Shown here: one piece after another, positions 8,973 through 39,379 of the stretch
How positions within the stretch are numbered: position 1 is the first letter of the stretch
Layout of the letters: each line of letters starts with the position of its first letter
Source of the DNA: Raillietiella orientalis
Lineage: Eukaryota
Reading direction: 5' to 3'
DNA length: 47,961 nt
Assembly (NCBI GenBank): GCA_036172245.1
Contig: JAYWIR010000033.1
Span: 2,418,001-2,465,961, forward strand
Program-made: the position numbers and the translations under genes
The notes under the pieces: generated by a model
Databases searched by the model: none
Told to the model about the DNA's origin: nothing
The model's input: only the letters and a program-made list of their open reading frames with translations

Positions 8973-11900
8973 TTTCACCCAGAATTCGCCGGGGCGTTTA
9001 TTCTAAAATAAACATTTACAAAGACATGCAGTGACTGGACCATTGCTCTAGCCACGCACGAAGAAACACAGAGCCTGCAGAGTCACCGGTTCGCTGACCG
9101 GCACGGTCCACCACGGCAGCAGCGGGAAAGATGAAAAACAAAACAAAAAGAAAAGAAAAAACTGGGAGGGTACGGGAAGGGATCACAGTTGCTGGTGGGG
9201 CCGTTGCATCCTTTGCAGGATGCCGGCAAGCTCTTGCTGCATGCGTGGATCCAGGTGAGGCCATCGCGACGCTCTCCTCAGGAACTGGGAGGCTGGCTGG
9301 ATGGCACCCTGGTCGTGCTGTCCTCCCGTAGCCTTGCTCCAAGCGGTGAAGATACCGCGTAGGCAGCACAAAGCTGCAAACGAGGCCGCTGGCCGAAGGG
9401 CGTCGGCAACGAAGAGGGCTTTCAGTGCGTCCCTGGAGTTGCCGCAGGGGATTCCGATGGCCGCGGCAAAGAGAAACCTAAGGGGCCGAAGGGCAACACA
9501 ATCCACTAGCAGGTGGGGGAGGAACTCCCGTTGCCCACACCTGACGCAATTGGGGTCCACCGCTCCCCAGGTCCAGTGGTGTCGGCGAACGTTGCAGGGG
9601 AGTCCCCAGTGCTGCAACAGCAGAGCCGACTCCTGCCATTTTAAGGGGAGGGCGGAAGTGTTCATAAGCACCGGGGGCCACTTCAGATGTTCAATGGGAA
9701 CATCGAGCAGCGCGCCCCAGCGCAGAAGTCCATTGGGAGGCGTACTCGGGGACGCAGCGTCTGTCAACTGTCCCGTCTTCCACTCTCCTATCTTCTTCTC
9801 CTTTCCGGAGATTTTTACTGTAACCTCCCACTTCGCCGCAACATCGCTGTCCAGACCTTCCATCAGGGAGGGCAGCGCAGCAGCGAGGGAAGTTCTTCCT
9901 GCCAACGCTCTCTTCTTTGGATCCTTCAGGATCTCGCGGAGCGTGCACCTTCTGTAACCCCCAAACAGGAACCTTTGTTCCTGTTGGGAGCGTTGCATGC
10001 CGAACTGTCCCAACGTTCGAACGGTTTCCTGCAACCAGGCACTACCGTTCAAAGGGCGAAAGGTGACCAATCCTGGTTTTTTCCGGTACAGCGCAGCCAC
10101 CCTCCGTAGCTGGAGTCCGCATCGGTTGACGCGGCGACGGAGTGCAAGAAACGACGTCAGTCCCGTCTTGCCGGTGGCTTGCTGGAAAAGGAGACGTGCA
10201 GGGACGCACCAACAGGTACACCACAACTTTGAAACAAGTGCCGAAATTCGGAACTAAAGCTGAAGCTTCAGCCGCTCCAGCGTCAGAAGGCCCAGACCAC
10301 CGTCCCGAAGAGGAGCGCACAAGTCCATTAAGCGCACACAAGCCCTCCCGTTGCCCCGAAGGGCGATACGGAGGAGGTCCTTTGTCCGCTTTCTAATTCT
10401 CTCTGTGGAGGGGCAAACAAAAAGCAGGGGGCGGAGAAGAGGAGCCGCGAACGTGTTCCAAACCACGGCCCGTTCAAGCAGGAAAAACCTGCCGCCTCAG
10501 AACGGGCCGATCGCCGTCTCTACTTTTTGGAGGCAGTTGGACCACGCTTCCGCAGGGGAGTAGTCTCCCTACAACACACCAGGTACTCGAAGTACCTCAC
10601 CGTGGGGATCCCCAAACGGACCCAGTCCTGCTGCCCTGCCCAGGCCGCACCAACTGGCATCACGGACGACTTCGCCCTGTTCACCGTAAGTCCGGTTCCC
10701 CGATGCAGCAGGCAGAAGAAGTCCTCGATCGCCGAAGCCGGGGTGGACATAGGGAGCAGCAGCAGAAGGTCGTCCGCGTACGCTGAAACGGCCGGCGTAC
10801 CGGCGCAGTCGTGCGGCAGGTGCGCCAGAGTTCCCCTGTACGCTCTCAGTACCAACTCAAAGTAGGTACTGAAGAGCAAGGGGCTCAGGCTGTCTCCCTG
10901 CCGGATCCCACGGCGCACCGGCACGCCGTGCACGGTCTGCCCGCTGAAAGTAACATTGATGAGCGCGTCGCGCCAGCAGGAGCGCAGATAGGCCAATAAT
11001 GAGGCCGGGAAGCCCAAGCGTTCCAGAAGCTCCAGAAGGAGATTCTGGTCTACGAAATCGAATGCTTTTCGCAAGTCGATTGCGACCGCAAGGGCTCCCT
11101 CCCCCACCCGACCATCCGACCCCTTGCCGGCGCACGCACCTAAATTCCGGCTGCGCACCAAGCTCCTTTCTTGTTGGAGCTCTAGCCAGGTGGAAGCGTG
11201 GAACAGGTTCGCCTCCATGCTTCGCCCGGGAACAGCATATGTCTGTTCCGGGCTGATGAAGATGCTGGCAACCCGTCCCAGACGCTCTGCCCAAACCTTT
11301 GCTAGCAACTTGGCGTCCGCATTCACTATTGTGATGGGACGCCAGTTGTTCATGCTCCTCAGATCTCCTCCCTTAGGGAGGAGCCGCACCTTTGTTGAAC
11401 GAAACGAGGCGGGAACGTCACCTGTTTCGCGTATCAGCAAGGTGAGTTGCTGTACCAGGGGGGTAAGCTCAGCCGCGAAAGTTTGATGAAACTCCGCGGG
11501 TAGGCCGTCCCCCCCTGGAGCCTTTCTCCTCTTCAGCTTTCCGATGGCCGAGAGGATCTCGTTCATCGTGAAAGGCTGGTCGAGGATCTTTCTCTGCTCC
11601 TCCCCGATCGCTGGAGCGCCTTCCGGAAGCAGGAGTCGTGAGACGTTATTCTCCGGAGGTGCCCTGGCATACAAAGAGGAGTAGTAACTCCGCAGCAGGC
11701 CGCGGATTTGGGCAGGTGCCGAGTGCTCCTGGCCCTGATCGTCCAGCAAGCTGGCCGATCCGGACTGCCAGGCTTGCATCTCGGCTCCCGCTTTGTATTC
11801 CGCCAGCCTGCAAATGTCGGAGGTCCTGGCGTAACGACAAACCTGCAGGTAGGCTCGTTCTTTACGGACCCCGGTCCCAAAACCCATAGGTAGGCGGTGC

Positions 11901-12020
11901 AGAGGGAACTGGTCGCAGAACTCCTGGACCGACAGCTTGAAGCGGTCCAAATCCTGGAGTGTCCGCAGCCTGAAGCTCAGTATGAACGTGCGGAGATGTT
12001 TCGCTGCGTCCGGTAGCCTC
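8973..12020 (-). mobile_element. 5'-truncated family-A LINE (RT, C-terminal domain, 3'UTR, terminal hairpin)
   Basis: ORFs 10520-11950 and 9183-10226, U-rich 3'UTR, AATAAA at 9002-8997 followed by the conserved hairpin. Confidence 0.92.
9183..11950 (-). pseudogene. LINE ORF2 reverse transcriptase plus C-terminal zinc finger, frameshifted
   Basis: KAPGGDG, LLPKGGD, NWRPIT, DLRKAFD, GIRQGDSLSPLLF, AYADD, CVRCGQREFLPHLLVDC; frame breaks between 10226 and 10580. Confidence 0.93.
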
Positions 12021-12710
12021 TTGAGCTTTCAGATGGCCGAGATGATCTTGCCCATCGTAAAAGGCTCGTCGAGAGACTTTCTATCTTCCTCTCCGATCGC
12101 CGGAGCGCCTTCCGGAAGAAGTCGCGAGACATCCTAGTCCAGTGAAGCGCGCGCGTACAGGTAGGAGTAGAATTTTTTTTCTAAGCCTTTTTACTAAGCG
12201 CCACGCAGATGACGGGGTTCCCTAATCGCGTGGGCGCACCTCGAGTACGATCCGGTCACGGTCCGACAGTTTCGAAGGGAACTTGCCGCGCCTGCCCACG
12301 CGTGAGCATAGGTGCTGGTCAAGGAACACGTGATCTATGCAGTCGGCGATTTCCTGATCTCCCGCGAACAAGTTGCGCGTGTGCATCTCTGCGCACAGCA
12401 CGTTCACGCGATTCCGAAGAGTGTCGGACGCACCTGACCGCAGGTGCAGGTTAAAGTCACCTGCGACTAGGTGCGCTTTGCGCACTCCCGCTCCGTCCAG
12501 ATATTCACGCCTCAGGGTAAGGAAGAAATCTCTCCGCGCCTTTGCCCTTAGCGCGTCGCTGCCGCTTGGGGCGTACACGTTGGTAAGGACCGGATGGATG
12601 GAGTCGGACCACCTGATGTTCAACTGCATGACGCGACTGGCACTATCGAAACCCACGCCTTTGCCGGAGCCTCTACAGCTGGACGAAGCGGGAACGCGTC
12701 ACCGCAAGAT
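12021..12710 (-). mobile_element. Family-A ORF2 fragments (pre-RT piece and APE endonuclease)
   Basis: 12021-12170 resembles 11530-11686; ORF 12222-12656 has TNVYAPSG, AGDFN, IDHVFLD. Confidence 0.8.
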
Positions 12711-14125
12711 TTAACGGTGCAGCAACGCCACAGCAGCCTTCCACCCGAGATACGCTCGATCTCCTGCGCTCGTACTGTGCAGACGTGTTTCCGCGTCTAT
12801 CCGCGCCAACGATCGGGCAAATTTGTGCCTGCGTTTTTGCTCGCACTTATGTGTTCCTGTGCAATCTGCCAAGTAGCATAGTGCAACATGGCCAGTACAC
12901 AGGATAGTGTGGAGGAGCAAGCCACTGGATGCACTTCAGCTGCACTTGAAGTGGCCGCATCCTCCGTAATGGTTTCTTCGCCCCCGGTGCGGAGTTACGC
13001 CGCCGTTACCTCCCAAAGACCAGGACCCTGCGATGCGGAGTTCCAGGCATATGTGTCATCAGGATACATGCCTGCACTCCGTTATAAGGTCAGTGGGCCA
13101 CTTAACGGGAGAATCGGTCGTGAGCTCAATGTTGAGCTCGTCCGGATAGGCGTTCGCGAGGAGGAACTCCTTGCCATAATGCCTGCTGGCAGGATGGAAT
13201 ATACGAAGATTCGGTGCAAGAACGCAGCACTTGTGCAGCGCCTTCTCCGTACGCCGTTGACCATCAATGGCAAGGAAGTCCTACCTACCGCGATGGACGA
13301 CTCTTTTGTCGTTCAATTGTGCGACATCGAACCGGAAATCTCCGACCGCGATGTTGTAAGCGTGCTGGCGAAGTTCGTTACCGTGCACGCCCTGTGGAGG
13401 AGGACGAACCCTTTGAAGGATTTCCCCTCTGTCCACATTGGACAAGCCTCCGCGCGGATCACCGTCGCGAACAGGCGTGTTGTGCCTGAGCAGCTGCAGG
13501 TGAACGGCACGGTCGTTCACCTGTGGTTCATAGGCCAGACTTACGCGTGCAAGCAGTGCGGCAAGGATGGGCACCGAATTAATGAGTGCCCTTCTCCAAG
13601 ATGCCGCTATTGCAAAGATTCCGGGCACGAAATCAAAAACTGCCCGGTACTTGCAAGAAAAAGAGCCGCAGCGGAAATTCGTCGTGTTCAAGAGACCACT
13701 GCACGAAAAGCCGCAGCGGAAAATAAAAAACGTCGTCCGCAAAAACTCGCAAAAAACCACGAGCGATCCGCGGATGAAAAGAAAGCATCCCCGCCCGCAA
13801 CGCCCCGAAAGGGGAAAGTCACGGCGGGGAAGCCAATTAAAAAGGGGCCCGAGGGTTTGACGCGTGCCGTGCCTTCCCTCTCTGCCGAACTTGCAGGCAC
13901 CTCTCCGAGCCAGGAACCAGGGAATCTCCGTAACACCCTGGAGGGAAAGGTAGGAAAACAGGAAGATCGCAACAGTGCGAAGACTTCTTGCCCCGTTCCG
14001 TTGTCCCTTCCGAGTTCCGGACAGCCTCACTGCAGCGCAGGCTTCACTGCAAAGGCTACGAAAGCCGTAAAAAGCAGCGTCGCGACGAGCAAAAGCACGC
14101 TGCATGCAGTCGCTCCATCGCCGAC

Positions 14126-14133
14126 TCGGCAGG
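14126..14133 (+). repeat. TSD tcggcagg, left copy (right copy 17616-17623)
   Basis: Identical 8-mer on both flanks of the family-B insert; its removal restores the ORF1 frame. Confidence 0.85.
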
Positions 14134-17100
14134 TTTCCCCAAGTCCCACAAGGGGTGGGGTAAGTTTATTTTTCTATAAAAATACAAAATTTACATTCGC
14201 ACTCTCATTCACTCAATACAAACATTTTGCACTTGGGGGTCCTTGGGTTGCACTAGAGTTCTGCTTTTCAGGGGGAATTCCAGCTGGATGGTCCCGGGCG
14301 TCGTCCTGGATCCTCTTCAGGATGAATCGGTACGTCCAGGCGTGGATCTTCCCGCAGTTCCTGATGCCGATTTCCCTCTTTAAGAGCCCTTGTAGGATCT
14401 CCATCGGTGGTGCGGCTCTCCTGGCTTTCCTCATTTTCCACCACCGCACAAGTATGGCGGTGATGAAGAGGGCTATGGTCGTCCTCACCATGGGATTGTA
14501 ACAGGGAACATTACCATCCCCATGAAACATCCCGGCGAAGATCTCCATAACGGACTTGTTGGTAAGTCCTATGATCCTTTTCAGGATCAGCCAGTCATGC
14601 AGCAGTGTGGGACACGTCAAGACGTGAAGTCTCGTGTCGTCGTCGCCACATGCTGCGCAGTATCGGTCTTCCCGTCTTCCTGTGAAGTGCTGCAATCGGG
14701 ACCCACTCTGGATTCCTCCGTGATAAAACATCAGGAGGTCATCCTGGGTGCCCGGCGGAAGGTCACTCCTCCAGAGCGTCGTGCCAATCGCTAACAGGTT
14801 GAACCGTTCACTCCCGTAGCGTTCGGTGGCTTCCTGGAGGGCACTGATATCACTGTGTTCTTCTTGAATTAGTCTTCGGAGGTTTGTTCTGGTTACACTC
14901 GACCATGCGAAGTCGTAGTGGTTGAACCACACTTCGCGGGTCCTGTGGGTAAACCTTCCTAACATCATCTCTGTATACCGAAGTATACGTGTTTGATGTA
15001 GGTAGCCTCCTCGCCTCCACTCCTGGATTTGCAGTAGGGTAACTCTGGACCGCTGGTAGATCCAGCTTCTCGTGTCCGGCGGGACAGGAAGCAACCAAGG
15101 GATCACCAGGATGTACTCGTCCTGCCAGAGTTCCCTGCTTCGCGGCACGATCTTGATTTGGTGCTTCCGCACCAGCCGTTGCTTCCTCGTCCAGGTGGGG
15201 TCGATTTTGTTCCATTCCCCTACTTTGCCTAGCAGCGCAGTCATCAGGCCTTTCGAGTTGTTAAGCAACAACGCGTAGGCCCTGTGCGCCGCATACGGCC
15301 AGTCATCCCAGTAAGTGGCAATGTCCAGGATGTGTCGCGTATCCATGATTTCCATGAAATGTGCAAGCGACTTCATCCCGGAAACGCCTTCTTCCCTGGG
15401 ACGACACAGGGGTTTCAGTCTTACTCTTGGGCGATAGTGGCCCCAGAGTGTTTTTCTTTGCAGCTTGTCGAACTCCCTAGTAGTATCGTTGTTCATCCTC
15501 GCGAAGGCCGCCCCGAAGAGCACTTTCGGAAGGAGTACTCCGTTCCATATGTTGGCCTTTCGCTTCATCCCAAGAACCGTTCGGGTGTACTTGGCTGCTT
15601 CCTTGGCCGTTTTCCCCAGGATTTCCTTCCACAGCAGCTTCGACGCAGAGCCGTCGCCGATGTAGACTCCCAGGTACTTGGCCGTGTCCACCGTACGGAA
15701 TCCACTACCCGTTAGAGTGGAGAGATCCAGTATTCCGACGGGCAAAAGCTGGCTCTTCTGGGAATTGTTTTTTAAGCCCAAGCCCTGTTCCATCAGGTCC
15801 ACCACATCCAGAAACGCACGCTGATTTTTCTCTTTCTTGATGAAGAAGAGTAGATCATCGACGTATGCCAGATGGGTAAGACGCTGGCTATCGATGGTAA
15901 TCCCGCTTAGTCGTCCGCTCTTCTCGATAGAGGACGACAACGCCTCCATATAGATTACGAACAGCATCGGACTTAGCGAGTCGCCCTGTCGGACTCCTCG
16001 TTCCATCCTGATTGCTGCCGTCTCCTGGCCGTTGATCTTGATCTGGCAGTACTGGTTCTGGAGTACCGCCCTCACGAAGTTGCTGAAGTGTTCCGAAAGC
16101 CCTAGCTTCTCCAGAAATTTCAGCAGCATCCCGTGGTCGATGGAGTAGAAGGCCTTCTCCATGTCAGTGAACACCAGCACCAGGTTCTCGCCGACGTATC
16201 GACTGAGTCCAACAGTGGCCTGGGCACACTTGACATTCTCCGACATGTGTCGTCCTGGGACTGCACATGTCTGGACCGGAGAGATCAGCCTCGACATGAC
16301 CTTGCCTAAGCGGTTGGACCAGATCTTTGCCAACCACTTGGCATCGGAGTTTAGGATCGAGATTGGCCTCCATTGGGCGAACTGGGTAGAGTCGCCTCCG
16401 TTCGGCAGCAATCTCATCCGACTCTCGTAGAAGGACTGAGGTAGTCTGCCTTCTTCCCGGATGCAGAGGGTCAACTGGTGGAACAAGCGCAGGTAGGCGT
16501 GCAGGTACCGCTGATAGTGCGGGATGGGTACACTGTCAGGGCCCGCTGCCACGTCCTTGCGAAGTTGCCCAAACGCAGTCTTCACCTCTTCTTCGGAGAA
16601 CTCCTCCTCCAGTCTGTTCCGCTGGAGGTCGTCGGTCCTCTTTTCGAGATAGCCCAAGAAGGCCTGTTGACTAGAGCGACACAGCTGTTGTCGCCTGAAG
16701 TGTTTCGTGTACTGCCTGTGAAAGGCATCCACAATGTCCTCACACGAATGTCGCTTTTAACCGTCGTACTGGATGCAGAAGATATCTGTTGCCAGATTTC
16801 TCTTCTCCAGCACGCCGACTTCCCCTTTTATGTTATTGAGGACGTACCGACTCTCGTACTGATCGAAGTACTTTGAGAGGGAGCGATCTTGGATGTTCAG
16901 CTCCCGGTACGCCTCTTGTTTCAAGCGCCTATCCCCGAACTGCATGTTCGCAAACCGGTGTATCCTGTGTCTCAGGCTGTCCCAGTCGGCGACTCTTCGG
17001 ATTGTTGTTGCCCTGAGAATCGCCTCCAGGACAGCCTGATGTCCGGGATGGGTTTCGAACCAGGCGGGCATGCTGATGAGCGCCGCCCTGGTGCCTTGCC

Positions 17101-17615
17101 TCCGCCGAGGATTTTCCGTTCTTAGGAAAAACCGCACCAGGGGGTGATCGCACACCGCAGTCATAGTGTCGCGAAACCCCTGGATGCTATTCCCAAGTTC
17201 GGTGCTGTGCAGGACGTGATCGATCGGCTTGTGACTTGCAGTTCGCCACACCAGTCCGAACTCGTCGGATAACCGCCGATACGCCGTCCTTCCTCTGGCG
17301 TCTTCGGAGTGAGTGATCTCATCCAAGATGTTGAGATCGCCAGCAACTATCACGACGTCCTTAGGGGCGACCTTTTGCCGGAGTGTTGCATGCAGCGCCT
17401 CCGCACAACGATGTTTTAGCCTGTGCGGCCCGTACACGTTCACCAGGATGAGGTGAACAGTAGCGGACCAGGCCAGTCGCACGCCGATGATTCGTCCGGG
17501 TTGGGGACAGAACACTTTTAGAATAGTGGGGGCCAAGTTGTTCTTGATTAGGACCGCCACTCCCTGCGTGTTCCGTTCTCCCTCGCTGACGAAAATCTGC
17601 CCGTTGAATCGCCGT
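14134..17615 (-). mobile_element. Family-B LINE copy 1, 5'-truncated within the endonuclease
   Basis: EN ORF 16757-17560 (NVYGP, AGDLN, IDH, CDH) and RT ORF 14213-16732 are in the same frame, separated by one stop; AATAAA at 14170-14165; flanked by a TSD. Confidence 0.93.
14213..16732 (-). CDS. LINE ORF2 RT and C-terminal zinc finger (839 aa open segment, probably inactive)
   Basis: QWRPISILN, DMEKAFY, GVRQGDSLSP, LAYVDD, KYLGV, CAACGDDDTRLHVLTC. Confidence 0.85.
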   Translation of the reverse strand: MDAFHRQYTKHFRRQQLCRSSQQAFLGYLEKRTDDLQRNRLEEEFSEEEVKTAFGQLRKDVAAGPDSVPIPHYQRYLHAYLRLFHQLTLCIREEGRLPQSFYESRMRLLPNGGDSTQFAQWRPISILNSDAKWLAKIWSNRLGKVMSRLISPVQTCAVPGRHMSENVKCAQATVGLSRYVGENLVLVFTDMEKAFYSIDHGMLLKFLEKLGLSEHFSNFVRAVLQNQYCQIKINGQETAAIRMERGVRQGDSLSPMLFVIYMEALSSSIEKSGRLSGITIDSQRLTHLAYVDDLLFFIKKEKNQRAFLDVVDLMEQGLGLKNNSQKSQLLPVGILDLSTLTGSGFRTVDTAKYLGVYIGDGSASKLLWKEILGKTAKEAAKYTRTVLGMKRKANIWNGVLLPKVLFGAAFARMNNDTTREFDKLQRKTLWGHYRPRVRLKPLCRPREEGVSGMKSLAHFMEIMDTRHILDIATYWDDWPYAAHRAYALLLNNSKGLMTALLGKVGEWNKIDPTWTRKQRLVRKHQIKIVPRSRELWQDEYILVIPWLLPVPPDTRSWIYQRSRVTLLQIQEWRRGGYLHQTRILRYTEMMLGRFTHRTREVWFNHYDFAWSSVTRTNLRRLIQEEHSDISALQEATERYGSERFNLLAIGTTLWRSDLPPGTQDDLLMFYHGGIQSGSRLQHFTGRREDRYCAACGDDDTRLHVLTCPTLLHDWLILKRIIGLTNKSVMEIFAGMFHGDGNVPCYNPMVRTTIALFITAILVRWWKMRKARRAAPPMEILQGLLKREIGIRNCGKIHAWTYRFILKRIQDDARDHPAGIPPEKQNSSATQGPPSAKCLY

Positions 17616-18281
17616 TCGGCAGGAGAGGAGCAATCTCCCGACTGTCAAGAAGGTGACTCCGTTGCCGCTTTTTAAAGGCGTAGCGAAAGCAACGCCCCCA
17701 GAGAACGCAGCGAAAATCCCGGAGGTTTCCGCAACTACTGTCGCGGAAGCCTTCAAAAATCGCGAAGGCGAATGGAAGGTTGTGGAGAGGAAGAAAGAAA
17801 AATCTGCAAAAAAAGCTCCGCAACCTCCATCCCTGAGCTCTTCCAAAGGAAAAAGCAGTCGCGGGAATACGAAAACACGCGCGGCTTGTGACTCTTCCAA
17901 GGAAAAAGCCAGCGCCTTCAACGCGTGCAAGTCCGCTTTTGTGACCGCCGAGAAGACCATTCCGGTGCAATCGGACGGATGCAAGCGCACGTCGATCGTG
18001 CGAGCATCAGACTACGCAAAGGAGTCCGATAACGCAGCTGAACGACGCGTTACTCGTGCGGGAGCGAGCGCCCGCAGGGCTGAAGCCCTGAGGCGTGACA
18101 CACTCGCCGCGGAACGGCGAGTGCTCACCCCGGAACCCACAGGTTCTGCACCCGGAGAGGAGCACCCGATTACGTGCAGCACAGTTGAGGCCGGTGGCGA
18201 CCGCGCCCTCCAGCCCGTCGTGCTTCTTACTGCCCGCTCGCCATGTGAGGCGAGCACCACGGCCTCGCTTTCCCAGCCGTG

Positions 18282-21200
18282 ATGAGGGCAATCGCGTCTT
18301 CTCGTCGTGTTGCCGTAACGTCTTGGAACGTCAACGGGCTCCAACACGAGGAGAAGAGGCGACTAGTGGCTGACGCTCTGAGCGCCTTCGACTTGACGCT
18401 CCTGCATGAGATTCATAGCATCTCCGGAGAGCAGGCTGCCGAAATCGAACGGCGCGCGGGCGGAACGCTACTTTATAGGTGCGGCGTTGCACGTACGTGC
18501 GGCGTCGCTTTCCTCGTCGAGGAACTTTGGCGGGAGCGGTGCGCAGCGTTCGTTTCGACACGGAAGGCCGAGTGGGACAGCTTGTACTCAAGTGGTCCGA
18601 CTCGATCGACCTTGTCGTAACCAACGTGTACGCGCCGAGCGGTGCTGGACGATGGGCCGGAAGGATTGAGTTCCTCGGGACCCTTCAAAGCCAGTGGCTC
18701 ACTCGATTTCACCCTACTGTCGCCCATTTCATTGCGGGGGACTTTAACGTCCACCTGCTTTCCGAGAATAGATCCCACAAAAGGGAAAAGTTGCTAACGG
18801 AAGAGATGTGCGCGTCCGTGCACGCGTGCAACTTGTTCGCCAGCAACCCTGTTATGGCAGCAACGCCGGACCACGTATACCTTGATGAACACTTGCTCTG
18901 TCGAGTGGGTCGGAGAGGTCCCGTGCCGTCCGTGCTTTCAGACCACAACAGGCTCGAGTTCGAGTTGCTCCCGCCAGGCAAGGGGCCTCCAAACTGTTTT
19001 TGGAGGATGCCGGCAGACTGACTAAGCCACCCGGAGGCGGCTGAGCATCTTCGTTAGTACCTCTTTGGCTTTGTTATAAGTGAGGTCGAGGACTGGGACG
19101 ATCTGAAAAGATCGGTCCGCGAGTTCTGCTGCCGGTTTCCCTTGCACCAGCTTCCGCGCGGCTTCGGAGAGGGCGTATCCAACAGAAGAGATTTTCTGAA
19201 GGCCCGCTCCTTTTCCAGTCGCGCGGACGTTGGTCGATTATCCGAGTACAAGGCCAAGGCCGAGCGCCAGGTCTGGCAGTCAGGGGCGACAGTTCTGCTC
19301 GACGACCTGGACCGGGAATGCTCGGCTCCAGCCGACGTGCGACGGATAGTCAGGCGCTATTACTCTTCTCTGTATGCAGAGGCACCGACGGAACGCAGCC
19401 TCTTTCGGCTGCTTCTGCCGATTGATGCACCTCTTGTAGACGAGGAAGAACGCGCGCGTCTTGATGAGCCCTTCACGGCCGACGAAATCTCCTCGGCCAT
19501 CTCGGGGCTCAAGAGACGAAAAGCGTTAGGCGAAGATGGGCTCCCCGCGGAATTCTTCCAGTGTTTTGCGGCGGAGCTCATCTCCCTGGTGCTATAACTC
19601 TCGTCGCTGATGCGAGACTCGGGCGATGACCCCGGCTCGTTTCGCTCAGCGAAGGTGCGTCTACTGCCGAAAGGCGGAGATTTGCGCCAACTGAACAACT
19701 GGCGTCCGATCACATTAGTGAATTCGGACGTCAAGTTGTTCTCGAAACTTTGGGTGACGCGGATGGGTAGGATCGCGGAATCCTTGGTAAGTCCGGAGCA
19801 GACGTACGCTGTTCCTAAGCGGTCCATGGACGCGAATCTCTTGTTCATCCGCACATGGCTGCAATTGCAGCATCGTGTGGCGGTGGATCGTCGTGCGGAA
19901 GCGACGCCTTCGATCTCTCACCGACGGAGGCGCGGGACGCAAAGGGAGACACCGGGAGCCTTGGCGGTTGCAGTCGATTTGCACAAAGCTTTCGATTGCG
20001 TGAACCGAAAGCTTCTTCTTGAGCTTTTGGAACGTCTGGGTCTTCCGGCATCCCTGTTGGCGTACTTGCGCTCCTGCTGGCTCCACGCGATTACATCCAT
20101 TGTTTTCAGTTGCTGTCGCGTGTACGGCGTGCCGGTACGACGAGGAATTAGGCAGGGTGACAGCTTAAGCCCGCTGCTCTTCAGCATCTATTTTGAATTG
20201 GTGCTGGAGGCTTACAGGCTGAAGCTAGCCAACCTGCCGAGCTCCTGTCCAGGTAAGCCGGCCGTGGCAGCCTATGCCGACGACCTGCTTCTCCTGTTGC
20301 CCATGTCCACCCCGGCGACATCGCTTGAAGACTTCTTTGAGTTGATTCGTCGCGGTGCGGGCGTGAGCGTTAACAGGAGTAAGTGTATGGTTGTTCCGGT
20401 GGGTGCGACGTGGGAGGGGCAGTCCGACAGGATCGACCTGGGGATCCCCACGGGCAGGTACCTCAGGTACCTTGGCGTGCCGTTGGGCGAGTTCTGCATC
20501 TCAGAAGCGTGGTCGGACTGCCTTCGGAAGGCAGAGCGTGCACTTGGCCCGTTTTCAGGAGGAAAGTTGGTCTTGCCGGAACGGGCCTGCATCTGGAACA
20601 CCTTCGTTGCCCCCCTCCTCGCCCCCTGTTCTTTGTTTGTTCACCCGCGCAGGAAGTCAAAGTCTGGGTGCAGCGCCTTCTACGCAAAGCGTTGTGGGGC
20701 ACTGCAAGATCCCGTGTCAGACTTAAAGACTTGGTGGCGCCGTGTCAGGATGCAGGCTTGGGCATCCTCGACTTAAACAGCATCGAACTGCAGGTGCAGT
20801 TTCGCAGGCTGCGGCTCTGTGCCAAGCTGTGGTGTACGCCGTGGTGCTTACCCGCACGCCTTATACTGAGGCGCTGTACGGGGAGCGAGGGACTGCTTTC
20901 GTTGCTACCCCACTTTCGGCACACCAGAATAGGGTTTGGCTTCCCGCTGAGGCAGCTGTCCTCACTGCTGGAAGCCCAAAGCTGGATCTCCTGCCGCCCC
21001 ATGAACATTAATGCATAAGGACAGGAATCTTTTTCATCGTGGGCAGCTTCCGAAGGAACGCGCCCGGAAGATCTTCGACGCCTGCGACTTCTCCTCAGTC
21101 ATCAAATGGACGAAGTCATGCAGGACAAGAAGTTGTCGGATCGTCTGGCCGCCACACCACTCGCCGCAGCGCTGTCTGCCCTCAGGGCAAGCAACGACGG

Positions 21201-22050
21201 TTGCCTACCGGCGGAATGGGAGTTCTCCTGCAAAATAGCGGGAGTCAGTAAGCTCCTCGGCAGCTGGACGACAAAGGAGCTGGTGCAAGCCGCCTCACCT
21301 CGGAATCGGGCGAAGGGACTGCTTCGGTGGAGGGAACATTTAAATGTGCCTCCCGGAGAGATAGTGGTTCCCCCCGTTTGTTTGGACAGCTCCGTGTTCC
21401 CCCTTAAGTGGAAACAAGATGTGCTGCTCTTTTTACATTGCGCATTTCACTGTAATAGGCAGCGAAGCATCGTTTCCGGGGGAGCTGCTTTGCCAAACTG
21501 TTTAAGGTGCGGAGAGATCGAGTCTTTTCCGCACCTTTTGCTGGACTGCGGTGACCTCCGGGAACTGTGGCGAAGGCTCACTTCGGCCATCATGCTACAA
21601 GGAGGCACTGCCATTGATGTGCTGCGGCGCTTCTTCAGCAGAAATGGACTTCCGGTTGGCGCGATTGTCGCAACCATGTGTTGCGTTCGCGCTATCGTGA
21701 AGGCCCGCTACGCCCTGGAGTTGTCAGCGCAGCGAAGGGAGGCTCACCTGCTTGCAGCTCAATTCATGGAGAAGAAGCTTTCAAAGAAGACAGAATGGTA
21801 ATGTGTATGATGAACTGCGGAAGCCAAAGCAGTCATCGAGTGAATCAACGAAGGAACCCATTCTTATCGGAAAACTCACCTGATTTTCCTCGTGCGCACT
21901 TCTCCATTTTTAATCGACCACGTTCAGGTTCAAGCACAAAAATATTAAAATTCATGGAGAAGGCTTCAAGGTGGTCTCATCTTCGTGCAAGGTGAATGAG
22001 GACATCACCGGCATACACCGCCGGTTTACACACCTTTGAGAAAGGCGTAA
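18282..22050 (+). pseudogene. LINE ORF2 (EN-RT-zinc finger) with several stops and frameshifts
   Basis: SWNVNGL, NVYAPSG, AGDFN, SDH, NWRPIT, DLHKAFD, QGDSLSP, AYADD, YLGVP, CLRCGEIESFPHLLLDC across ORFs 18279-21801. Confidence 0.93.
21775..21948 (+). other. 174-bp non-LINE insert flanked by a 14-bp TSD
   Basis: aattcatggagaag at 21761-21774 and 21949-21962; the insert is absent from the related copy near 31260-31280. Confidence 0.85.
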
Positions 22051-22362
22051 TCCGGTGACCCCTGCGACCTCTCGCCCACCCATACCCCGTCCCCGTTCGC
22101 TCGGTAAAATTTCCGGTACCCATGCTTTTATCCCCGTGTCTTCCAGAGCGATCCCAAAGACCCTTATCCCGTCCTCCTTATTCATTGTTTTTATTTTATT
22201 TTGGTTTCTTTGTGTTTCCCGCCCCCCCACACCGTTCAAGAAACTGTTACTCTAGCCTGCGTGCCAGCAATATTCTCTTCATTCTTGTTCAGTCGTCGGT
22301 TGGGAGTTTGGTTCCCAACTGGTTTATTTTGTATAATTTCTTTTTTTGGTTATGTTATATGG

Positions 22363-22392
22363 AATAAACGCTCCGGCGTGACCGGGTGAGAA
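22363..22392 (+). terminator. Family-A 3' terminus: AATAAA plus GC-rich hairpin (also 34644-34673 on +; 8973-9002, 27546-27577, 30842-30871, 45586-45622 on -)
   Basis: Six copies approximating AATAAACGCCCYGGCG(N3-5)CCGGGT, each at the end of a 3'UTR. Confidence 0.8.
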
Positions 22393-23765
22393 ATCTCGTG
22401 CACTCGTACAGTGCAGACGTGTTTCCGCGTCTATCCGCGCCAAACATCGGGCAATTTTGTGTTTGCGTTTTCGCTCGCATTGTGTGTTCCTGTGCAATCT
22501 GCAAGTAGCATAGTGCAACATGGCCAGTACACAGGATAGTGTGGAGGAGCAAGCCACTAGATGCACTTCAGATGCACTTGAAGTGGCCGCATCCTCCGTA
22601 ATGGTTTCCTCGCCCCCGGTGAGGAGTTACGCCGCCGTTACCTCCTAAAGACCAGGACCCTGCGATGCTAAGTTCCAGGCATATGTGTCATCAGGATACA
22701 TGCTTGCACTCCGTTATAAGGTCAGTGAGCCCCTTAATGGGAGAATCGGTCGTGAGCTCAATGATGAGCTCGTCCGGATCGGCGTTTGCGAGGAGGAACT
22801 CCTTGCCATAATGCCTGCTGGCAGGATGGAATATACGAAGATTCGGTGCAAGAACGCAGCACTTGTGCAGCGCCTTCTCCGTACGCCGTTGACCATCAAT
22901 GGCAAGGAAGTCCTACTTACCGCAATGGACGTCTCTTTTGTCCTTCAATTGTGCGACATCGAACCGGAAATCTCCGACCGCGATGTCGTAAGTGTGCTGG
23001 CGAAGTTCTCCACCGTGCACGCCCTCTGGAGAACGCCGAACCCTTTGAAGGATTTCTCCTCTGTCCACATCGGACAAGTTTCCGCGCGGATCACCTTCGC
23101 GAATAGGCGTGTTGTGCCTGAGCAGCTGCAGGTGAACGGCACGGTCGTTCACCTGTGGTTCATAGGCCAGACTTACGCGTGCAAGCAGTGCGGCAAGGAT
23201 GAGCACCGAATTAATGAGTGCCCTTCTCCAAGATGCCGCTATTGCAAAGATTCCGGGCACGAAATCAAAAAGTGCCCAGTACTTGCAAGAAAAAGAGCCG
23301 CAGCGGAAATTCGTCGTGTTTAAGAGACCACTGCACGAAAAGCCGCAGTGGCGAATAAAAAACGTCGTCCGCAAAAACTCAGAAAAAGAAACAAGCGATC
23401 CGCGGATGAAAAGAAAGCATCCCCGCCCGCAACGTTCCGAAAGGGGAAAGTCACGGCGGGGAAGCCAATTAAAAAGGGGAGCGAGGGTTGGACGCGTGCC
23501 GTGCCTTCCCTCTCTGCCGTACTCGCCGGCACCTCTCCGAGCCAGGAACCAGGAAATCTCCATAACACCCTGGAGGGAAAGGTAGGAAAACAGGCAGATC
23601 GCAACAGTGCGAAGACTTCTTGCCCCGTTCCGTTGTCCCTTCCGAGTTCCGGACAGCCCCAATGCAGCGCAGTCCCCTCTGCAAAGGCTACGAAAGCCGT
23701 AAAAAGCAGCGTCGCGACGAGCAAATGCACGCTGCATGCAGTCGTCCCATCGCCGACTCGGCAGG
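22393..23765 (+). mobile_element. Second copy of the 5'UTR and ORF1 seen at 12759-14133 (ATG 22520), with nonsense mutations
   Basis: Near-identical to the first copy; stops near 22560, 22648 and 23323. Confidence 0.92.
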
Positions 23766-26700
23766 TTTCCCCAAGTCCCACAAAGAGTGAAGTAAATTTA
23801 TTTTTCAAAAATTTTCGTACAAAAACATTTACACTACAGTCTCATTCATACCATTTGCACTGTCTTTACAACTCTGAAGTCCATGAGTTCACAAGTTCTG
23901 CACTCATGGTGGGTTTCCTGCTTCTTGGTCCCGGGCGTCGTTTTCTAACCTCTTCAGGATGAATCGGTAAGTCCAAGCTTGGATTTTCCCACAGTTTCTA
24001 ATGCCGATTTCCCTCTTCAGGAGCCCTTGCAGGATCTCCATCGGTGGTGCGGATCTTCTGGCTTTCCTCATTTTCCACCACCGCACAAGTATGGCGGTGA
24101 TGAAGAGGGCGATGGTCGTCCTCACCATGGAATTGTAACAGGAAACATTACCATCCCCCTGGAACATCCCGGCGAGGATCTCCATTACGGATCTCTTCGT
24201 ATGTCCGATGATCCTTTTCAGGATCAGCCAGTCATGCAGCAATGTGGGACACGTCAAGACGTGAAGTCTCGTGTCGTTGTCTTCACATGCCGTGCAGTGT
24301 CGATCTTCACGTCTTCCAGTATAGTACTGCAATCGGCACCCACTCTGGATTCCTCCATGAAAAAACATCAGGAGGTCATCCTGGGTGCCCGGCGGAAGGT
24401 CACTCCTCCAGAGCGTCGTGCCAATCGCTAACAGGTTGATCCAGTCACTCCCGTAGCGATCGGCGGCTTCCTGGATGGCACTGATATCACTGTCTTCTTC
24501 TTGAATTGGTCTTCGGAGGTTTGTTTTGGTTACCCTGGACCACGCAAAGTCGTTGTGGTTGACCCACACTTCGCGAGTCATGTGGGTAAACCTTCCTAAC
24601 ATCATCTCTATATACCTAAGTATACGAGTGTGATGTAGGTACCCTCCTCGTTTCCACTTCTGGATTCATTGTAGGGTAACTCTGGACCGCTGGTGGATCC
24701 AGCTTCTCGTGTCCGGCGGGACAGGAAGCATCCAAGGGATCACCAGGATGGACTCGTCCTGCCAGTGTTCCCTACTTCTCGGCACGATCTTGATTTTGTG
24801 CTTCCGCACAAGCCGTTGCTTCCTCGTCCAGGTTGAATCGATTTTTTTCCATTCGCATGCTCAGCCTAGCAGCGCAGTCATCAGGCCTTTCGAGTTGTTC
24901 AACAAAAACGCGTAGGCCCTGTGCGCCGCATACGGCCAGTCATCCCAGTAAGTGGCAATGTCCAGGATGTGTCGCGTATCCATGATTTCCATGAAATGTG
25001 CAAGCGACTTCATCCCAGAACCGCCTTCTTCCCTGAGACGACACAGGGTTTTAGTCGAACTCTTGGGCGATAGTGGCCCCAAAGAGTTTTTCTCTGCAGC
25101 TTGTCGAACACCCTCGTGGTGTCCTTGTTCATCCTCGCGAAGGCCGCCCCGAAGAGCACTTTTGGAAGGAGTACTCCGTTTCATATGTTGGCCTTTCGGT
25201 TCATTCCAAGGTCCGTTCGGGTGTACTTGGCTGCTTCCTTGGCCGTTTTCCCTAGGATCTCGGTCCACAATAGCTTCGACGCGGAGACGTCGCCAATGTA
25301 GACACCCAGGTACTTGGCCTTGTCCACCGTTCGGAATCCTCTCCCCGCTAGAGCGGAGAGATCGAGGATTCCAACGGGCAAGAGCTGGCTTTTCTGGGCG
25401 TTGATCTTTATACCCAGGCCTTGATCCATCAGGTCTACCACATCCAGAAACGCTCGTTGATTTCTCGTTCCCTTGATAAAGAAGAGTAGATCATCAGCGT
25501 ATGCCAGATGGGTAAGACCCTGGCCATCGATTGTTATGGCTTGCAGTCGTCCGCTCTTCTCGATAAAAGACGACAACGCCTCCATGTAGATGACGAACAG
25601 CATCGGACTTAGCGAATCGCCCTGCCGGATTCACCGTTCCATCCAGATTGCTGCCGTCTCCTGACCGTTAATTTTGATTCGGCAGTACTGGTTCTGGAGT
25701 ACTACCCTCACGAAGTTGCTGAAGTGTTCCGGAAGGCCTAGCTTCTACAGAACCTTCAGCAGCATCCCATGGTCGATGGAGTAGAAAGCCTTCTCCATGT
25801 CAGTGAACACCAGCACGAGGTTCTCGCCGACGTATCGGCTGAGTTTTACGGTGGCCTGGGCACACTTGACATTGTCTGACATGTGACGTCCAGGAACTGC
25901 ACACGTTTGGACCGGAGAGATGAGCCTCGACATGACCTTGCCTAAGCTGTTGGACCAGATCTTCGCCAATCACTTGGCATCCGAGTTCAGGATCGAGATT
26001 GGCCTTTATTGAGCGACCTGCGTGAGGTCGCCTCCTTTTGGCAACAATCTCATCCGACTCTCGTAGAAGGACAGTGGAAGTCTTCCTTCTTCGCGGATGC
26101 AGAGGGTCAACTGGTGGAAGAAACGCAGGTAGGCATGCAAGTACCGCTGATAGTGAGTGATGGGTACGCTGTCAGGGCCTGCTGCCACGTCCTTGCATAG
26201 TTGACCAAACGCAGTCTTCACCTCATCTTCGGAGAACTCTTCCTCCAGTCTAATCCGCTAAAGATCGTCGGTCCTCTTCTGAAGATAGCTCAGAAAGGCC
26301 TGTTGACTAGAGCGACAGAGATGTTGTCGCCTGAAGTGTTTCGTGTAATGCCTGTGAAAGGCATCCACGATGTCCTCAGACGACTGTCGCTTTTGACCGT
26401 CGTACTGGATGCAGAAGATATCTGTTGCCAGATTTCTCTTCTCCAGCACGCCGAATTCCCCTTTTATGTTCTTGAAGACGTACCGACTCTCGTACTGATC
26501 GAAGTACTTTGAGAGTGAGCGATCTTGGATGTTCAGTTCCCGGTTCGTCACCTGCCTCAAGCGCCTATCCCCGAACTGCATGTTTGCAAACAGGTGTATC
26601 CTGTGTTTCAGGCTGTCCCAGTCGGCGACTCTTCGGATTGTTGTTGCCTCAGAATCGCCTCCAGGACAGCCTGATGTCCGGGATGGGTTTCGAACCAGGC

Positions 26701-27290
26701 GGGCATGCTAATGAGCGCCGCCCTGGTGCGTTGCCTCCGCCGAGGATTCTCCGTTCTTAAGGAAAACCGCACCAGGGGGTGATCGGACACCGTGGTCATA
26801 ATGTCTCGAAAACCCTGGATGCGATTCCCAAGTTCGGTGCTGTGCAGGACGTGATCGATCGGCTTGTGACTTGCAGTTCGCCACACCAGTCCGAACTCTT
26901 CGGATAACCGCCGATACGCCGTCCTTCCTCTGGCGTCTTCCGAATGAATGATCACATCCAAGATGTTGAGATCGCCAGCAACAATCACGACGTCCTTAGG
27001 GGCGACCTGTTGCCGGAGTGTTGCATGCAGCGCCTCCGCGCAACGATGTTTTAGCCTGTGCGGCCCGTACACGTTCACCAGGATAAGGTGAACAGTCGCG
27101 GACCAGGCCAGTCGCACGCCGATGATTCGTCCGGGTTGGGGACAGAACACTTCCAGATGAGTGAAGGACAAGTTGTTCTTGATTATAGACCGCCACACCC
27201 TGCGTGTTCCGTTCTCTTTCGCTGACGAACATCTGCCCGTTGAATCGCCGTTCCATTTGCTGACTAATCTCGAGACCCATCTTGTGGCGC
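23766..27290 (-). mobile_element. Family-B LINE copy 2, decayed and 5'-truncated
   Basis: Collinear with 14134-17615; LAYADD, LLPKGGD; several frameshifts; AATAAA at 23802-23797. Confidence 0.92.
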
Positions 27291-27545
27291 AACTCCCAGG
27301 ATGGCGTTCCCTTGTCGCTAGGCTGCATCTCGAAAATTAGCCGGGAATGGTGCGACAGCGTCGACGCAATCTTCCTACGTTTGCCGACATGTGAACACAG
27401 GTCAGCGTCGAGGAAGACGTGGTCGATGCTGCAGACCATTTCCCTTTCACCCGCGAACAAGTTGCGCATACGCATGGCGGCGTACAACTTGTTCATCGCG
27501 TTCACTTGTGTTTCAGGCTCATCTGTCAGCAGGCGGAGATTGAAA
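27291..27545 (-). mobile_element. Family-A endonuclease C-terminal fragment
   Basis: FNLRLL, then RMRNLFAGEREMVCSIDHVFLD and SHHSR. Confidence 0.8.
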
Positions 27546-29596
27546 TTTTTTCACCCGGTCACGCCAGGGCGTTTATTGAAAATAAACCGGTCAAAGACGA
27601 TGTCCTCAACTAAAGAAACGACAAGGAGCTAAGAGAAGTAACGGGCACACAGACCTGGTTAACAAACCGCTTCCAACAACACTGAGGGAGTAGAGGAATA
27701 ACACACACACACACAAAAAAAAAAAATTTGGAGGGAGGGGTAACGGGTCTTTGGTGGAGCTCCGTACTCACGGGGATTCAGATAGAGAGCACCTAAAATG
27801 TTCCGGAGCCTAATAGGGCAGAAGTGGAAAAAAAGAAAAAAAACATTTGAAGGGGGCGAGGGGAAAGTTTCACCGGGTGCGCTCTTAAGTAGCGTCTGTA
27901 AACCGTCGGCGAATGCTAGCGAGATCCCTTTTTGTATCCTCAGTCAATTGAGGCCATCTGGCGGCTCCTTTCATATAGGAAGATGCTTTGCCGATTACCT
28001 CTTGGTGCTGTCTGTTGATTATCAGCGCCTATCGGGCGGAAACTATCGCGCGTATGCAACCGATGATTGCAATCCTTGCGATTGTAGACAGCCCGCTCGG
28101 CGTGAAGAATCGTCGCAGCAAGTCTCTTGCAGTATCCTTCGGGTGCGAGGGTGCTGTTGCCAGCCTGCGCCAGGGTCACCTTGTGGGACACCGCAGTCCA
28201 GAAGCAAGTCTCCCGGAAACACGATGCCAACGCTCGTTGCACTGAAAACCCCAGTGAACGAAAAGCATCACGGCGTGTTTCCAAGCAAGAGATAGCAGCG
28301 AACTGTCGACACACTGTGGAGGGACTACAAGTTCTTCGGGGGTGACACCAAGTTCTTCTGCCCACCGGAGAAGTCCCTTTGCAGTAACACGAGGGGTGGC
28401 GGCGTCCGCGAACTCACTCGTCTTCCAGGCGCCAAGGAGTTTGGTTTTTCCCGCTATCGTGCAGGAAACCTCCCACCTCGCCGGTTGGCAACTGTCGTTT
28501 CTTGCCCTGAGGGCAGACAGCGCTGCGGCAATAGGCGTGGCAGCCAGGGTAGAAAACTTCACCTCGTCCTGCAGTACTTTTTCCAAGGATCGTGGAAAAA
28601 ATTGGCGCAGGGGGCGAAGATCTTCAGGGCGTATTCCTTGGAACGCCGCCCAGGATTTAACAGACTCCTGCCGCCAAGCTTCAAAGTTCATTGGGCGGCA
28701 GGAGATCCACGAGTGAGCTTCCAGAAGTGCGGTCAACTGCCGCAATGGAAACCCGAAACTCCGCTTCCTGTATTGAGTGCCCGGCAAAAGCGAGAGAAAT
28801 TCTCCGCTGCCGGCGCATCTCCGCAGGAGAATGCGGACTGGCACACACAGGGGGGATTTCCATAGCTGGGCACACAGTGCCAGCAGTCGGAACTGCACCT
28901 GCAGTCCGATTCGCTCCATTGTCAAGATACCTAAACCAGCATCCCGACGCGGAGCTAACAAATCTTTGAGGCGGATTCTGGATCTCGCCGGACCCCAGAG
29001 AGCGTTCCTGAGCAGGCGTTTAGCCCGCTGTTTTGCCGCATAGGGGGGGTCCAAAACAAAAAATAGGGGACGGAGGAGGGGAGCCACAAAGGTGTTCCAA
29101 ATAGTCGCCGGTTCCTGCAAGGTAAACTTGCCGTTAATGAACGGGATGATGGCCAACTCTGCATTCTGCAGACAGTCCGCCCACGCTTCAAGTGCGCCGA
29201 CAGTGCCCAACGGAACGCCAAGGTACTTGAAGTACCCGCCCGTGGGGATCCCCAGGCGGATCCAGTCGGACTGCCCCTCCCACGACGCACCCACAGGAAC
29301 GACCACGCTCTTCTCCCTGTTCACGCTCACGCCCGCTCCGCGACGAATCAGGTCGAAGAAATCCTTGACACTGGACTCCAGGGTGGACATGGGGAGCAGA
29401 AGAAGCAAGGTCATCAGCGTAGGCGGCAACGGCTGGCGTACCCGGGGAGGAGCATGGAAAGTGAGACGGAGTCAGCCTGTACGCTCTCAGCACCAACTCA
29501 AAGAAGATGCTAAAGAGCAACGGGCTTAAGCTGTCGCCCTGTCGGATGCCCCTACGCACGGGAAAACCGTACACGCGGCAGCCGCTGAAAGTGATG
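27546..29596 (-). mobile_element. 5'-truncated family-A LINE (RT C-half to 3' end)
   Basis: GIRQGDSLSPLLF, AYADD, FKYLGVP, HWGFQCN; 3'UTR with a (GT)n/U-rich tract; AATAAA at 27577-27572 and hairpin. Confidence 0.9.
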
Positions 29597-39340: not shown

Positions 39341-39378
39341 AATAAATTCTCCCCACCACAAGTAGGAAAGGGGAAAAA
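39341..39378 (+). terminator. Family-B 3' terminus: AATAAA plus CCCC...GGGG hairpin (also 14134-14170 and 23766-23802 on -)
   Basis: aataaattctccccaccacaagtaggaaaggggaaaaa compared with aataaacttaccccaccccttgtgggacttggggaaa; the 5' arm is degraded in copy 2. Confidence 0.7.
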
Positions 39379-39379
39379 C

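Follow-up and report, generated by a model that had tools for sequence, protein, structure and literature searches.

Target-specific long interspersed nuclear elements (LINEs) are thought to persist by way of multicopy "safe" sequences: rDNA, snRNA genes, microsatellites and DNA transposons. Can the coding region of another LINE serve as such a target? The question is raised by a 47,961-nucleotide stretch of the Raillietiella orientalis genome (GenBank assembly GCA_036172245.1, contig JAYWIR010000033.1, positions 2,418,001–2,465,961), hereafter the window, in whose own numbering all positions are given. In it, two copies of one LINE family, B, lie antisense at the same nucleotide of the first open reading frame (ORF1) of another family, A. 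Here we describe a third and much more diverged composite at the homologous position, and we consider it likely that B is a clade of LINEs with an apurinic/apyrimidinic (APE)-type endonuclease that targets one position in the ORF1 linker of A-clade LINEs, always in antisense orientation.

The analysis is based on the 48-kb window itself, which self-comparison and protein mapping found to be composed almost wholly of LINE fragments, and on the short contigs of a public sequencing run, X1. Domains were assigned with Pfam, and the B1 and A1 proteins were mapped on the window by tblastn. Nonsynonymous and synonymous divergence (dN and dS) were calculated by the Nei–Gojobori method with the two wrong reading frames as control. 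We refer to host and insert as A1 and B1 in copy 1, A2 and B2 in copy 2, and A3 and B3 in the third composite; D is an older LINE, and X is the fragment that follows B2. A slash within a sequence marks a junction.

Two B elements at the identical nucleotide of a LINE ORF1

The junction CCGACTCGGCAGG/TTTCCCCAAG occurs exactly twice in the window. A 23-mer across it, CCGACTCGGCAGGTTTCCCCAAG, is found at 14121–14143 and 23753–23775 with no mismatches, a match obtained in 0 of 100 shuffles, which bears out the claim of the initial annotation that both B copies lie at the identical nucleotide. To the left of each junction, on the plus strand, is an ORF1 with a CCHC knuckle, and to the right, on the minus strand, is a LINE ORF2 with Pfam domain Exo_endo_phos followed by RVT_1.

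In copy 1, the 5′ untranslated region (UTR) and ORF1 codons 1–415 of A1 occupy 12787–14133 on the plus strand, with the ATG at 12888 and the CCHC knuckle. B1 follows on the minus strand (14134–17615) as a 5′-truncated element that comprises the middle of the endonuclease (EN; Exo_endo_phos), the reverse transcriptase (RT; RVT_1), a C-terminal domain and the 3′UTR. The rest of A1 resumes on the plus strand at 17624–22392 with ORF1 codons 416–634, a decayed ORF2 (EN and RT) and the 3′ end ..AATAAACGCTCCGGCGTGACCGGGTGAG. The 8-bp target-site duplication (TSD) that had been reported for this copy is present as TCGGCAGG at 14126–14133 and 17616–17623, and excision of 14134–17623 (B1 and one TSD copy) restores a host ORF1 of 634 codons with no stop. 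From the TSD and the restored ORF1, B1 is a true nested insertion; the corresponding empty target site is CCATCGCCGACTCGGCAGG/AGAGGAGCAATC. B1 itself is well preserved, with one stop (codon 289, 16757–16759) and no frameshift in 1136 codons, and 14216–16756 is an intact 847-codon ORF. The ORF2 of A1 is disabled at about six places, among them stops at 19021, 19057, 19597 and 21018 and two or more frame changes. That the "host" sequence is simply part of a longer B is ruled out by the TSD and restored ORF1 of copy 1, and the three B copies end differently.

In copy 2, A2 (22393–23765, plus strand) begins directly after the 3′ end of A1, head to tail, and consists of a leader, the 5′UTR and ORF1 codons 1–415 with two stops. 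B2 (23766–27253, minus strand) has the 3′ junction and the 5′ truncation point of B1, and contains nine in-frame stops and three one-base indels. The place of the expected TSD and host continuation is taken by X (27254–27547, minus strand), a 294-bp fragment of the EN C-terminus of another A/D-like LINE. It joins the 5′ end of B2 with the reading frame kept, and its protein is 48%, 42% and 36% identical to three A/D-like elements of the window. X is in turn abutted by the 3′ end of A′, a 5′-truncated A-like LINE (27548–29590, minus strand). A continuation of the host ORF1 after B2 was found nowhere in the window.

Copy 2 had been described as extending about 35 bp further 5′ than copy 1. We found instead that the homology of B1 and B2 stops at the same B nucleotide, ..GAATCGCCGT(TC), at 17615–17617 and 27251–27253, and that what follows B2 is the foreign EN C-terminus and not B; the in-frame run of X is probably what was taken for the extension. 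The 5′ end of B reads ..CCCGTTGAATCGCCGT(TC) in both copies, followed by the TSD and ORF1 in copy 1 and by CATTTGCTGAC.. in copy 2, and the B sequence at the truncation point is ..GAACGGCGATTC. The truncation points, previously called similar, are indeed shared, and they are identical to within 2 nt. Two other origins of X were considered and rejected. X cannot be the upstream part of B, since it encodes an EN C-terminus and B then begins anew in the middle of EN with GDLN, IDH and CDH motifs of its own, nor is it an inverted piece of A2, as it is 36% identical to the EN of A1 whereas the host part of A2 is about 95% identical to A1.

A third composite at the homologous nucleotide

The third composite consists of B3, a diverged B-clade element on the plus strand (36915–39378, start approximate), and A3, a diverged and decayed A-like ORF1 that lies antisense to it on the minus strand (39379–40017). 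B3 retains ORF2 residues ~668–719 and ~733–1107 in B1 numbering, with four stops, and a 3′UTR ending in ..CCCCACCACAAGTAGGAAAGGGGAAAAA. With B1 as query, residues ~733–1107 are found at 38193–39284 with 34% identity over 383 amino acids (E 1e-45), and a 159-nt patch of B3 is 71% identical to B1 at the DNA level. The 3′UTR of B3 ends in AAATAAATTCTCCCCACCACAAGTAGGAAAGGGGAAAAA, resembling AAATAAACTTACCCCACCCCTTGTGGGACTTGGGGAAA of B1; 29 of 45 positions at the two 3′ ends are identical, with AAATAAA..CCCCACC..GGGGAAA in common. A3 covers residues ~203–414 in A1 numbering and matches A1 ORF1 residues 208–409 (tblastn E 3.6e-12; local match TKAGKSGGASLRKTLQPAAFFPTR).

The A3 match continues as far as ..TLQPAAFFPTR against ..TLHAVAPSPTR. 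A three-way DNA alignment of the composites spans the junction with about 117 columns free of gaps and places it in the same column, CGGCAGG/TTTCCCC in A1 and A2 against CGGTAGT/TTTTCCCC in A3, where the T run leaves an ambiguity of one base. In the 72 host bases 5′ of the junction, A1 and A3 agree at 47, a level that ungapped 72-mers drawn at random from the window reached in 9 of 200000 draws. B3 therefore abuts A3, in antisense, at the nucleotide homologous (±1) to the sites of A1/B1 and A2/B2, and the same target is shared by A1/B1, A2/B2 and the highly diverged A3/B3, three junctions in all. In the window, all three B-clade copies are antisense to a host ORF1 with the 3′ end of B toward its N-terminal part, and the composites account for 3/3 B-clade copies and for 3/3 A-clade ORF1 copies that keep the region of the site. 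For an insertion already taken to fall within an A-clade element (about 6 kb), position (±1) and orientation would both coincide by chance in about 3 of 12000 cases.

Could B3 and B1 descend from one ancient insertion? The aligned parts of A3 and B3 hold five and four stops, whereas A1 ORF1 has no stop in 634 codons and B1 one in 1136, so A1 and B1 were under selection until recently. Because they were recently functional and yet are far diverged from A3 and B3, B3 does not stem from the same insertion as B1. The A and B clades appear to have diverged together, A1/B1 from A3/B3. The pair B1/B2 is by itself no proof of site specificity; it is the third composite that makes a target-specific B clade the best explanation. 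The proposal of the initial annotation that B is a site-specific parasite of the family-A ORF1 is accordingly strengthened by A3/B3, while the two copies that had prompted it are not shown to be independent.

Several other features accompany this composite. A foreign stretch of 1.08 kb (37065–38140), which starts with a T run, interrupts B3 between residues ~719 and ~733 and contains a 183-codon minus-strand ORF (37089–37640) without a Pfam match. Just upstream of the B3 ORF2 remnant is a plus-strand ORF1 with three CCHC-like knuckles (36038–36736), which may represent the ORF1 proper to the B clade, retained in a B3 element with an internal deletion; B1 and B2 contain no ORF1 of their own. 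In a search for the 5′ side of B3, exact 7–8-mers of the expected TSD turned up only at the 3′ junction, apart from one 7-mer in LINE D2 at 34307 that we judge to be a chance match. On the other side of A3 lies an E-like fragment (40018–40671, minus strand) that runs from the end of an ORF1 to the start of EN and is 77% identical to 30171–30841. It ends at ..AHEI/, as does its relative at 30841, but here its reading frame runs on into the middle of the A3 ORF1 (..AHEI/NRNSGFTFVYL..).

B1 and B2 form a divergence mosaic

Self-comparison aligned copy 1 and copy 2 as one collinear block, 12759–17617 against 22393–27253, at 90.95% identity, and the right end of the block is the 5′ end of B in both copies. 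Being a single block, host and insert are repeated together. The divergence within it is uneven. As had been noticed, the B copies are more diverged than their hosts (about 10% against about 5.7%, or 80/1392 sites, in the host), and their 3′UTRs differ strongly, with 35.6% mismatches plus indels at 14151–14314. The high divergence begins 18 nt inside the 3′ junction. The reported excess of synonymous changes is also evident: B ORF2 has dS 0.257 and dN 0.062, a ratio of 0.24, against 1.18 and 1.73 in the wrong frames. The host ORF1 looks neutral, with dS 0.076, dN 0.046 and a ratio of 0.61 (wrong frames 0.72 and 0.78). Both copies do carry the unusual KAFY motif, reading ..DMEKAFYSIDHG...

The segments of B behave differently from one another. 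In the C-terminal domain (14366–15265) there are 37 differences at third codon positions and 45 at positions 1 and 2, and the adjoining patch 15266–15415 has just four differences altogether. In the RT (15416–16765), third positions account for 106 differences and positions 1 and 2 for 52 (binomial p 5e-18 for the excess), with dS of 0.36–0.40 and dN/dS of 0.10–0.20; the corresponding host counts, 24 against 42, are not significant. Further toward the 5′ end of B, 16766–17515 is only 5.1% diverged with a near-neutral pattern (18 against 20), and the last 100 nt are 12% diverged, including a tight cluster at 17518–17533. Decay is asymmetric as well. Within 14216–16765, B1 has no disabling mutation and B2 has ten (nine stops and one frameshift; p 0.002), while outside this interval the counts are 1 and 4, not a significant difference.

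Judged by these substitution patterns, the 3′ 2.6 kb of B1 and B2 come from different functional B lineages, and the 3′ part of B1 is a far more recent copy of a working element than that of B2. Host sequence, truncation point and the 5′ 0.75 kb of B share the behaviour expected of one copied unit. The overall pattern fits neither a plain duplication nor two clean independent insertions. Equal divergence of B and host together with dN/dS near 1, the outcome the initial annotation had named as refuting its proposal, is not seen on either count, nor is decay symmetric, and simple segmental duplication is thereby refuted. Its caveat, duplication followed by gene conversion, stays alive for the B1/B2 pair, given the shared truncation and the neutral 5′ segment.

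For this pair we slightly favor a second priming at the same nucleotide, either as an independent insertion into A1 or as re-priming at the occupied junction, with recombination of the new cDNA into the resident copy. A single insertion that was duplicated along with its host, one copy being overwritten afterwards through ectopic gene conversion, is a serious possibility, though we rate it below even. Against such conversion is that its tract must end within the last 18–46 nt of B; against an independent insertion is that the host and the 5′ segment of B are equally diverged, both in a neutral pattern. Two ways to account for the shared truncation point were rejected. Recent homogenisation requires flanking homology for the tract to move the end, and copy 2 lacks it. 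A 5′ ribozyme that would define the 5′ end of B has no support from Rfam, which gave no match in 12300–28300 at E≤1.

Alternatives to a target-specific B clade

A reading that dispenses with a special target is that B inserted once into one A, that the composite was then copied, at the DNA level or by retrotransposition of a composite RNA beside its source, and that one B later had its 3′ 2.6 kb replaced through ectopic conversion from an active B at another place; A3/B3 would then have arisen by coincidence or belong to this composite lineage as an old member. Much of the B1/B2 pair suits this reading: the single 4.86-kb collinear block, the 3′ junction and 5′ truncation identical in both copies, the equal and neutral-like divergence of host (5.3–5.7%) and B 16766–17515 (5.1%), the lack of a significant asymmetry in disabling mutations outside the B interior (1 against 4), and the head-to-tail arrangement of A1 and A2 with the same 28-nt leader. 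However, the conversion tract would have to stop in the last 18–46 nt of the B 3′UTR and leave the junction undisturbed, and a random breakpoint gives no explanation for a block whose right end coincides to within 2 nt with the 5′ end of B. Nor does the third composite yield to it. Coincidence at the homologous nucleotide and orientation has the low chance given above even if an insertion into an A-clade element is conceded, and descent from the same ancient insertion is impossible in view of the recent selection on A1 ORF1 (0/634 stops) and B1 (1/1136). We therefore regard a copied composite without target specificity as unlikely.

Less probable still is that B nicks only a short motif such as CGGYAG, so that its repeated ORF1 sites reflect a LINE-dense neighbourhood. 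The window is almost wholly LINE fragments, and A-type LINEs themselves share only an AATCTC core beside 3/3 of their 3′ ends, at two coding motifs. Yet a 6-nt motif occurs every few kilobases on both strands, the hosts near the site are merely about 65% identical, and all three B-clade copies have the same homologous position and orientation. As for an assembly artefact, in which a mis-joined or falsely duplicated repeat would have made the second junction and the B2/X joint, the region is highly repetitive, and only 39% of the words sampled from 12300–18400 are present in a single public run. The two blocks differ at 434/4852 aligned sites, however, so no collapsed or copied read is involved. 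Independent contigs of run X1 moreover bridge the A/B junction (a 595-nt contig, 13826–14419) and carry a B/X-type joint (a contig that exits B at 17617 into X-type sequence, with three differences in 30 letters), which argues against an artefact; we think it very improbable.

A target-specific B clade has difficulties of its own. The junctions number only three and all lie within one 48-kb window, and the N-terminus of the B endonuclease is absent from all three copies. In copies 2 and 3 no TSD or host continuation is seen on the 5′ side of B, B2 running into X. The B1/B2 truncation shared to within 2 nt and the host-level, near-neutral divergence of 16766–17515 are exactly what one insertion copied with its host predicts. 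A fresh A1 copy is poorly matched by an ORF2 with about six disabling mutations beside an ORF1 with none; A1 may derive from an ORF2-defective lineage. Finally, the microhomology at the 5′ junction and the reading of the B2/X joint as a second-strand nick, both discussed below, are post hoc.

A possible route of integration

From the junctions we infer nick positions, a role for the B endonuclease, a mode of 5′ joining and an order of events as follows. The B endonuclease would nick the sense strand of the host at ..CC(G/A)AC(T/G)CGG(C/T)AGG^AGAGG, which in copy 1 places the putative first-strand nick (GG^AG) after 14133, and the 3′-OH so produced would prime reverse transcription of a B RNA ending in ..GGGGAAA. 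A second nick, predicted 8 nt to the left, would give the TSD. The 5′ end of the cDNA would then be joined where ATCGCCGT-TC of B mimics ATCGCCGAC-TC of the target, and this would fix the truncation point. In copy 1, the right TSD copy (17616–17623) is indeed preceded by the B sequence ATCGCCGT, the mimic of the target's ATCGCCGAC, and a near-complete target site is regenerated there, as microhomology joining would bring about to the right of B. The microhomology ATCGCCG stands beside both TSD copies with seven contiguous matches, for which the chance is roughly 2e-4, and it suggests that the 5′ junction was formed by microhomology-guided joining.

If the truncation point is a property of the target in this way, its recurrence needs no common descent. 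The B2/X joint would lie at the predicted second-strand nick of the regenerated site, and renewed cleavage with misrepair, or a template jump, could explain the loss of the host at that point in copy 2. On this scheme the three occupied sites would result from at least two, and probably three, integration events, with A3/B3 old, A2/B2 intermediate and A1/B1 youngest.

Neighbouring LINEs

The block of copy 1 adjoins LINE D (8964–12758, minus strand; detected by tblastn and Pfam RVT_1), the older element that neighbours A1 and A2, which comprises the C-terminal part of EN, the RT and an A/D-type 3′ end. The 28-nt leader at the left end of the block (12759–12786, plus strand) is the antisense of the LINE D EN motif ..HVCTVRAQEI, and the EN frame of LINE D continues into it (..VCTVRAQEI/ERISGGRLLW..). 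The leader is repeated at 22393–22420 with four differences, right after the 3′ end of A1. A elements thus carry target-like sequence at their 5′ end and stand head to tail (A1 3′ end/A2), and the same arrangement is seen at 34682/34683.

The window holds six A/D-type 3′ ends, and their flanks pair up. Three are A-type (..AATAAACGCNCCGGCGTGACC.GGT.A.), each followed by the AATCTC core, at 22363–22420, 30819–30880 (minus strand) and 27548–27585 (minus strand). Those at 22393 and 30842 lie at the antisense EN motif ..EQA.EI of another LINE, the third at a sense ..FNLRL, and they may be a second case of a LINE-into-LINE site preference. Two D-type copies, 78% identical, lie at 8964–9002 (minus strand) and 34644–34700 (plus strand) and end in ..GGGTGAA and ..GGTAAA; at 8964 and 34683 both are followed by AATCGAA.GC.T, which at 8964 corresponds, in antisense, to ..AVAVNLHKAFD, an RT motif in a LINE fragment on the plus strand. 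With only two cases each, these observations suggest that B is not the only family here to return to particular sites in LINE coding motifs.

Taken further, they would describe a homing network in which several LINE families would each enter another one at a conserved motif of its coding sequence, an idea that we hold to be doubtful. The sites would be the ORF1 linker ..PTRQ^ for B, the antisense EN motif ..EQA.EI^ for A-type elements and the antisense RT motif ..KAFD^ for D-type elements; a copy of the target would stand at the 5′ end of each element, arrays would build up head to tail, and hosts and parasites would diverge together. One may even speculate that the KAFY of B in place of KAFD is an escape from D-type homing by removal of the site.

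Sequences beyond the window

Runs X2 and X3 gave no record and one spurious 33-nt record, respectively, and nothing usable. The summed contig depth in run X1 was 10–17 over the host and 43–92 over B, but contig depth cannot rank the parts and we drew nothing from it. Since the X1 contigs over the host match neither copy 1 nor copy 2 and represent an orthologue or a third paralogue, they are unusable for polarising substitutions. The empty-site joint 14133>17624 is not listed among the X1 contigs, although absence from contigs proves nothing. A single X1 contig links 13529 to 18270 and skips 4740 bases, its shorter side being only 33 letters; it could be an A-like ORF1 variant that lacks the whole linker and hence the B target site.

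A protein search with B residues 1–500 returned two distant unnamed matches among 8000 scored candidates and no full-length B. A metagenome scan for the B 3′ terminus gave no match, and the metagenome relatives of B (five loci, 22–26% identity) are too distant for use.

Implications

If B is target-specific as proposed, the coding region of another LINE would be a safe harbour of a new class for a known kind of element, and the composites would be a natural case of one retrotransposon disabling another. They would also offer a system for the co-evolution of target site and endonuclease between two selfish lineages, and three composites of different ages suggest that the association has persisted for long. 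A LINE endonuclease that recognises a long site would be of interest for targeted integration, and the 5′-junction microhomology is relevant to the way in which LINE 5′ ends become joined.

Comparison with known systems

B has Exo_endo_phos (E 1.7e-8 in B1 and 1.5e-5 in B2) followed on the same strand by RVT_1 (E 1.2e-30), and by this domain order, APE then RT, B is L1/Tx1-like. A zf-RVT domain gave no match in B1 at E≤1 and a weak one in A1 (E 0.036, below the cut-off); the B1 translation shows a C..C..H..C string. In the ESM Atlas, the nearest cluster carries the automatic name "Transposon TX1 149 kDa" (score 0.98, 210/256 features), which we take as a lead only.

According to PMC4494074, many Tx1-clade LINEs are target-specific, mainly through their endonuclease: Tx1 inserts into the piggyBac-type Tx1D, and crocodilian families into Mariner-N4_AMi, Harbinger or LTR retrotransposons. 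The same paper gives the criterion of Kojima, by which a family is target-specific if more than 20% of its flanks share sequence. Tx1L of Xenopus laevis, Tx1-Mar, Tx1-9_AMi, Tx1-8_Crp, Tx1-4_AMi, Keno, Kibi and Koshi are, as described there, APE-type elements whose endonuclease selects a defined sequence in a multicopy target, and Tx1-clade LINEs keep a fixed orientation at a given hot spot (PMC4494074). B would resemble them in both respects. Unlike theirs, the proposed target of B is the protein-coding ORF1 of another LINE, entered antisense. In the literature searched, seen in part and with subscription journals and Repbase Reports outside its scope, we found no LINE that targets the ORF of another LINE, an absence that does not by itself establish novelty.

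As is proposed for B, the R1 and R2 elements of rDNA integrate site-specifically by target-primed reverse transcription, vary in their 5′ ends and make use of target-like sequence where the 5′ end is joined. Targeting is reported to be reinforced by co-transcription of target sequence (PMC4494074, citing Eickbush and Fujimoto). R1 and R2 differ from B in that their target is a host rRNA gene and not a mobile element, and R2 uses a restriction-like endonuclease. LINE-1 is known for mosaic subfamilies and for gene conversion between LINE copies. Such mosaics join segments from different lineages, as in the B1/B2 mosaic, but in B the exchanged segment starts within 18 nt of a conserved insertion junction, for which re-priming at a specific site is a simpler explanation than random ectopic exchange.

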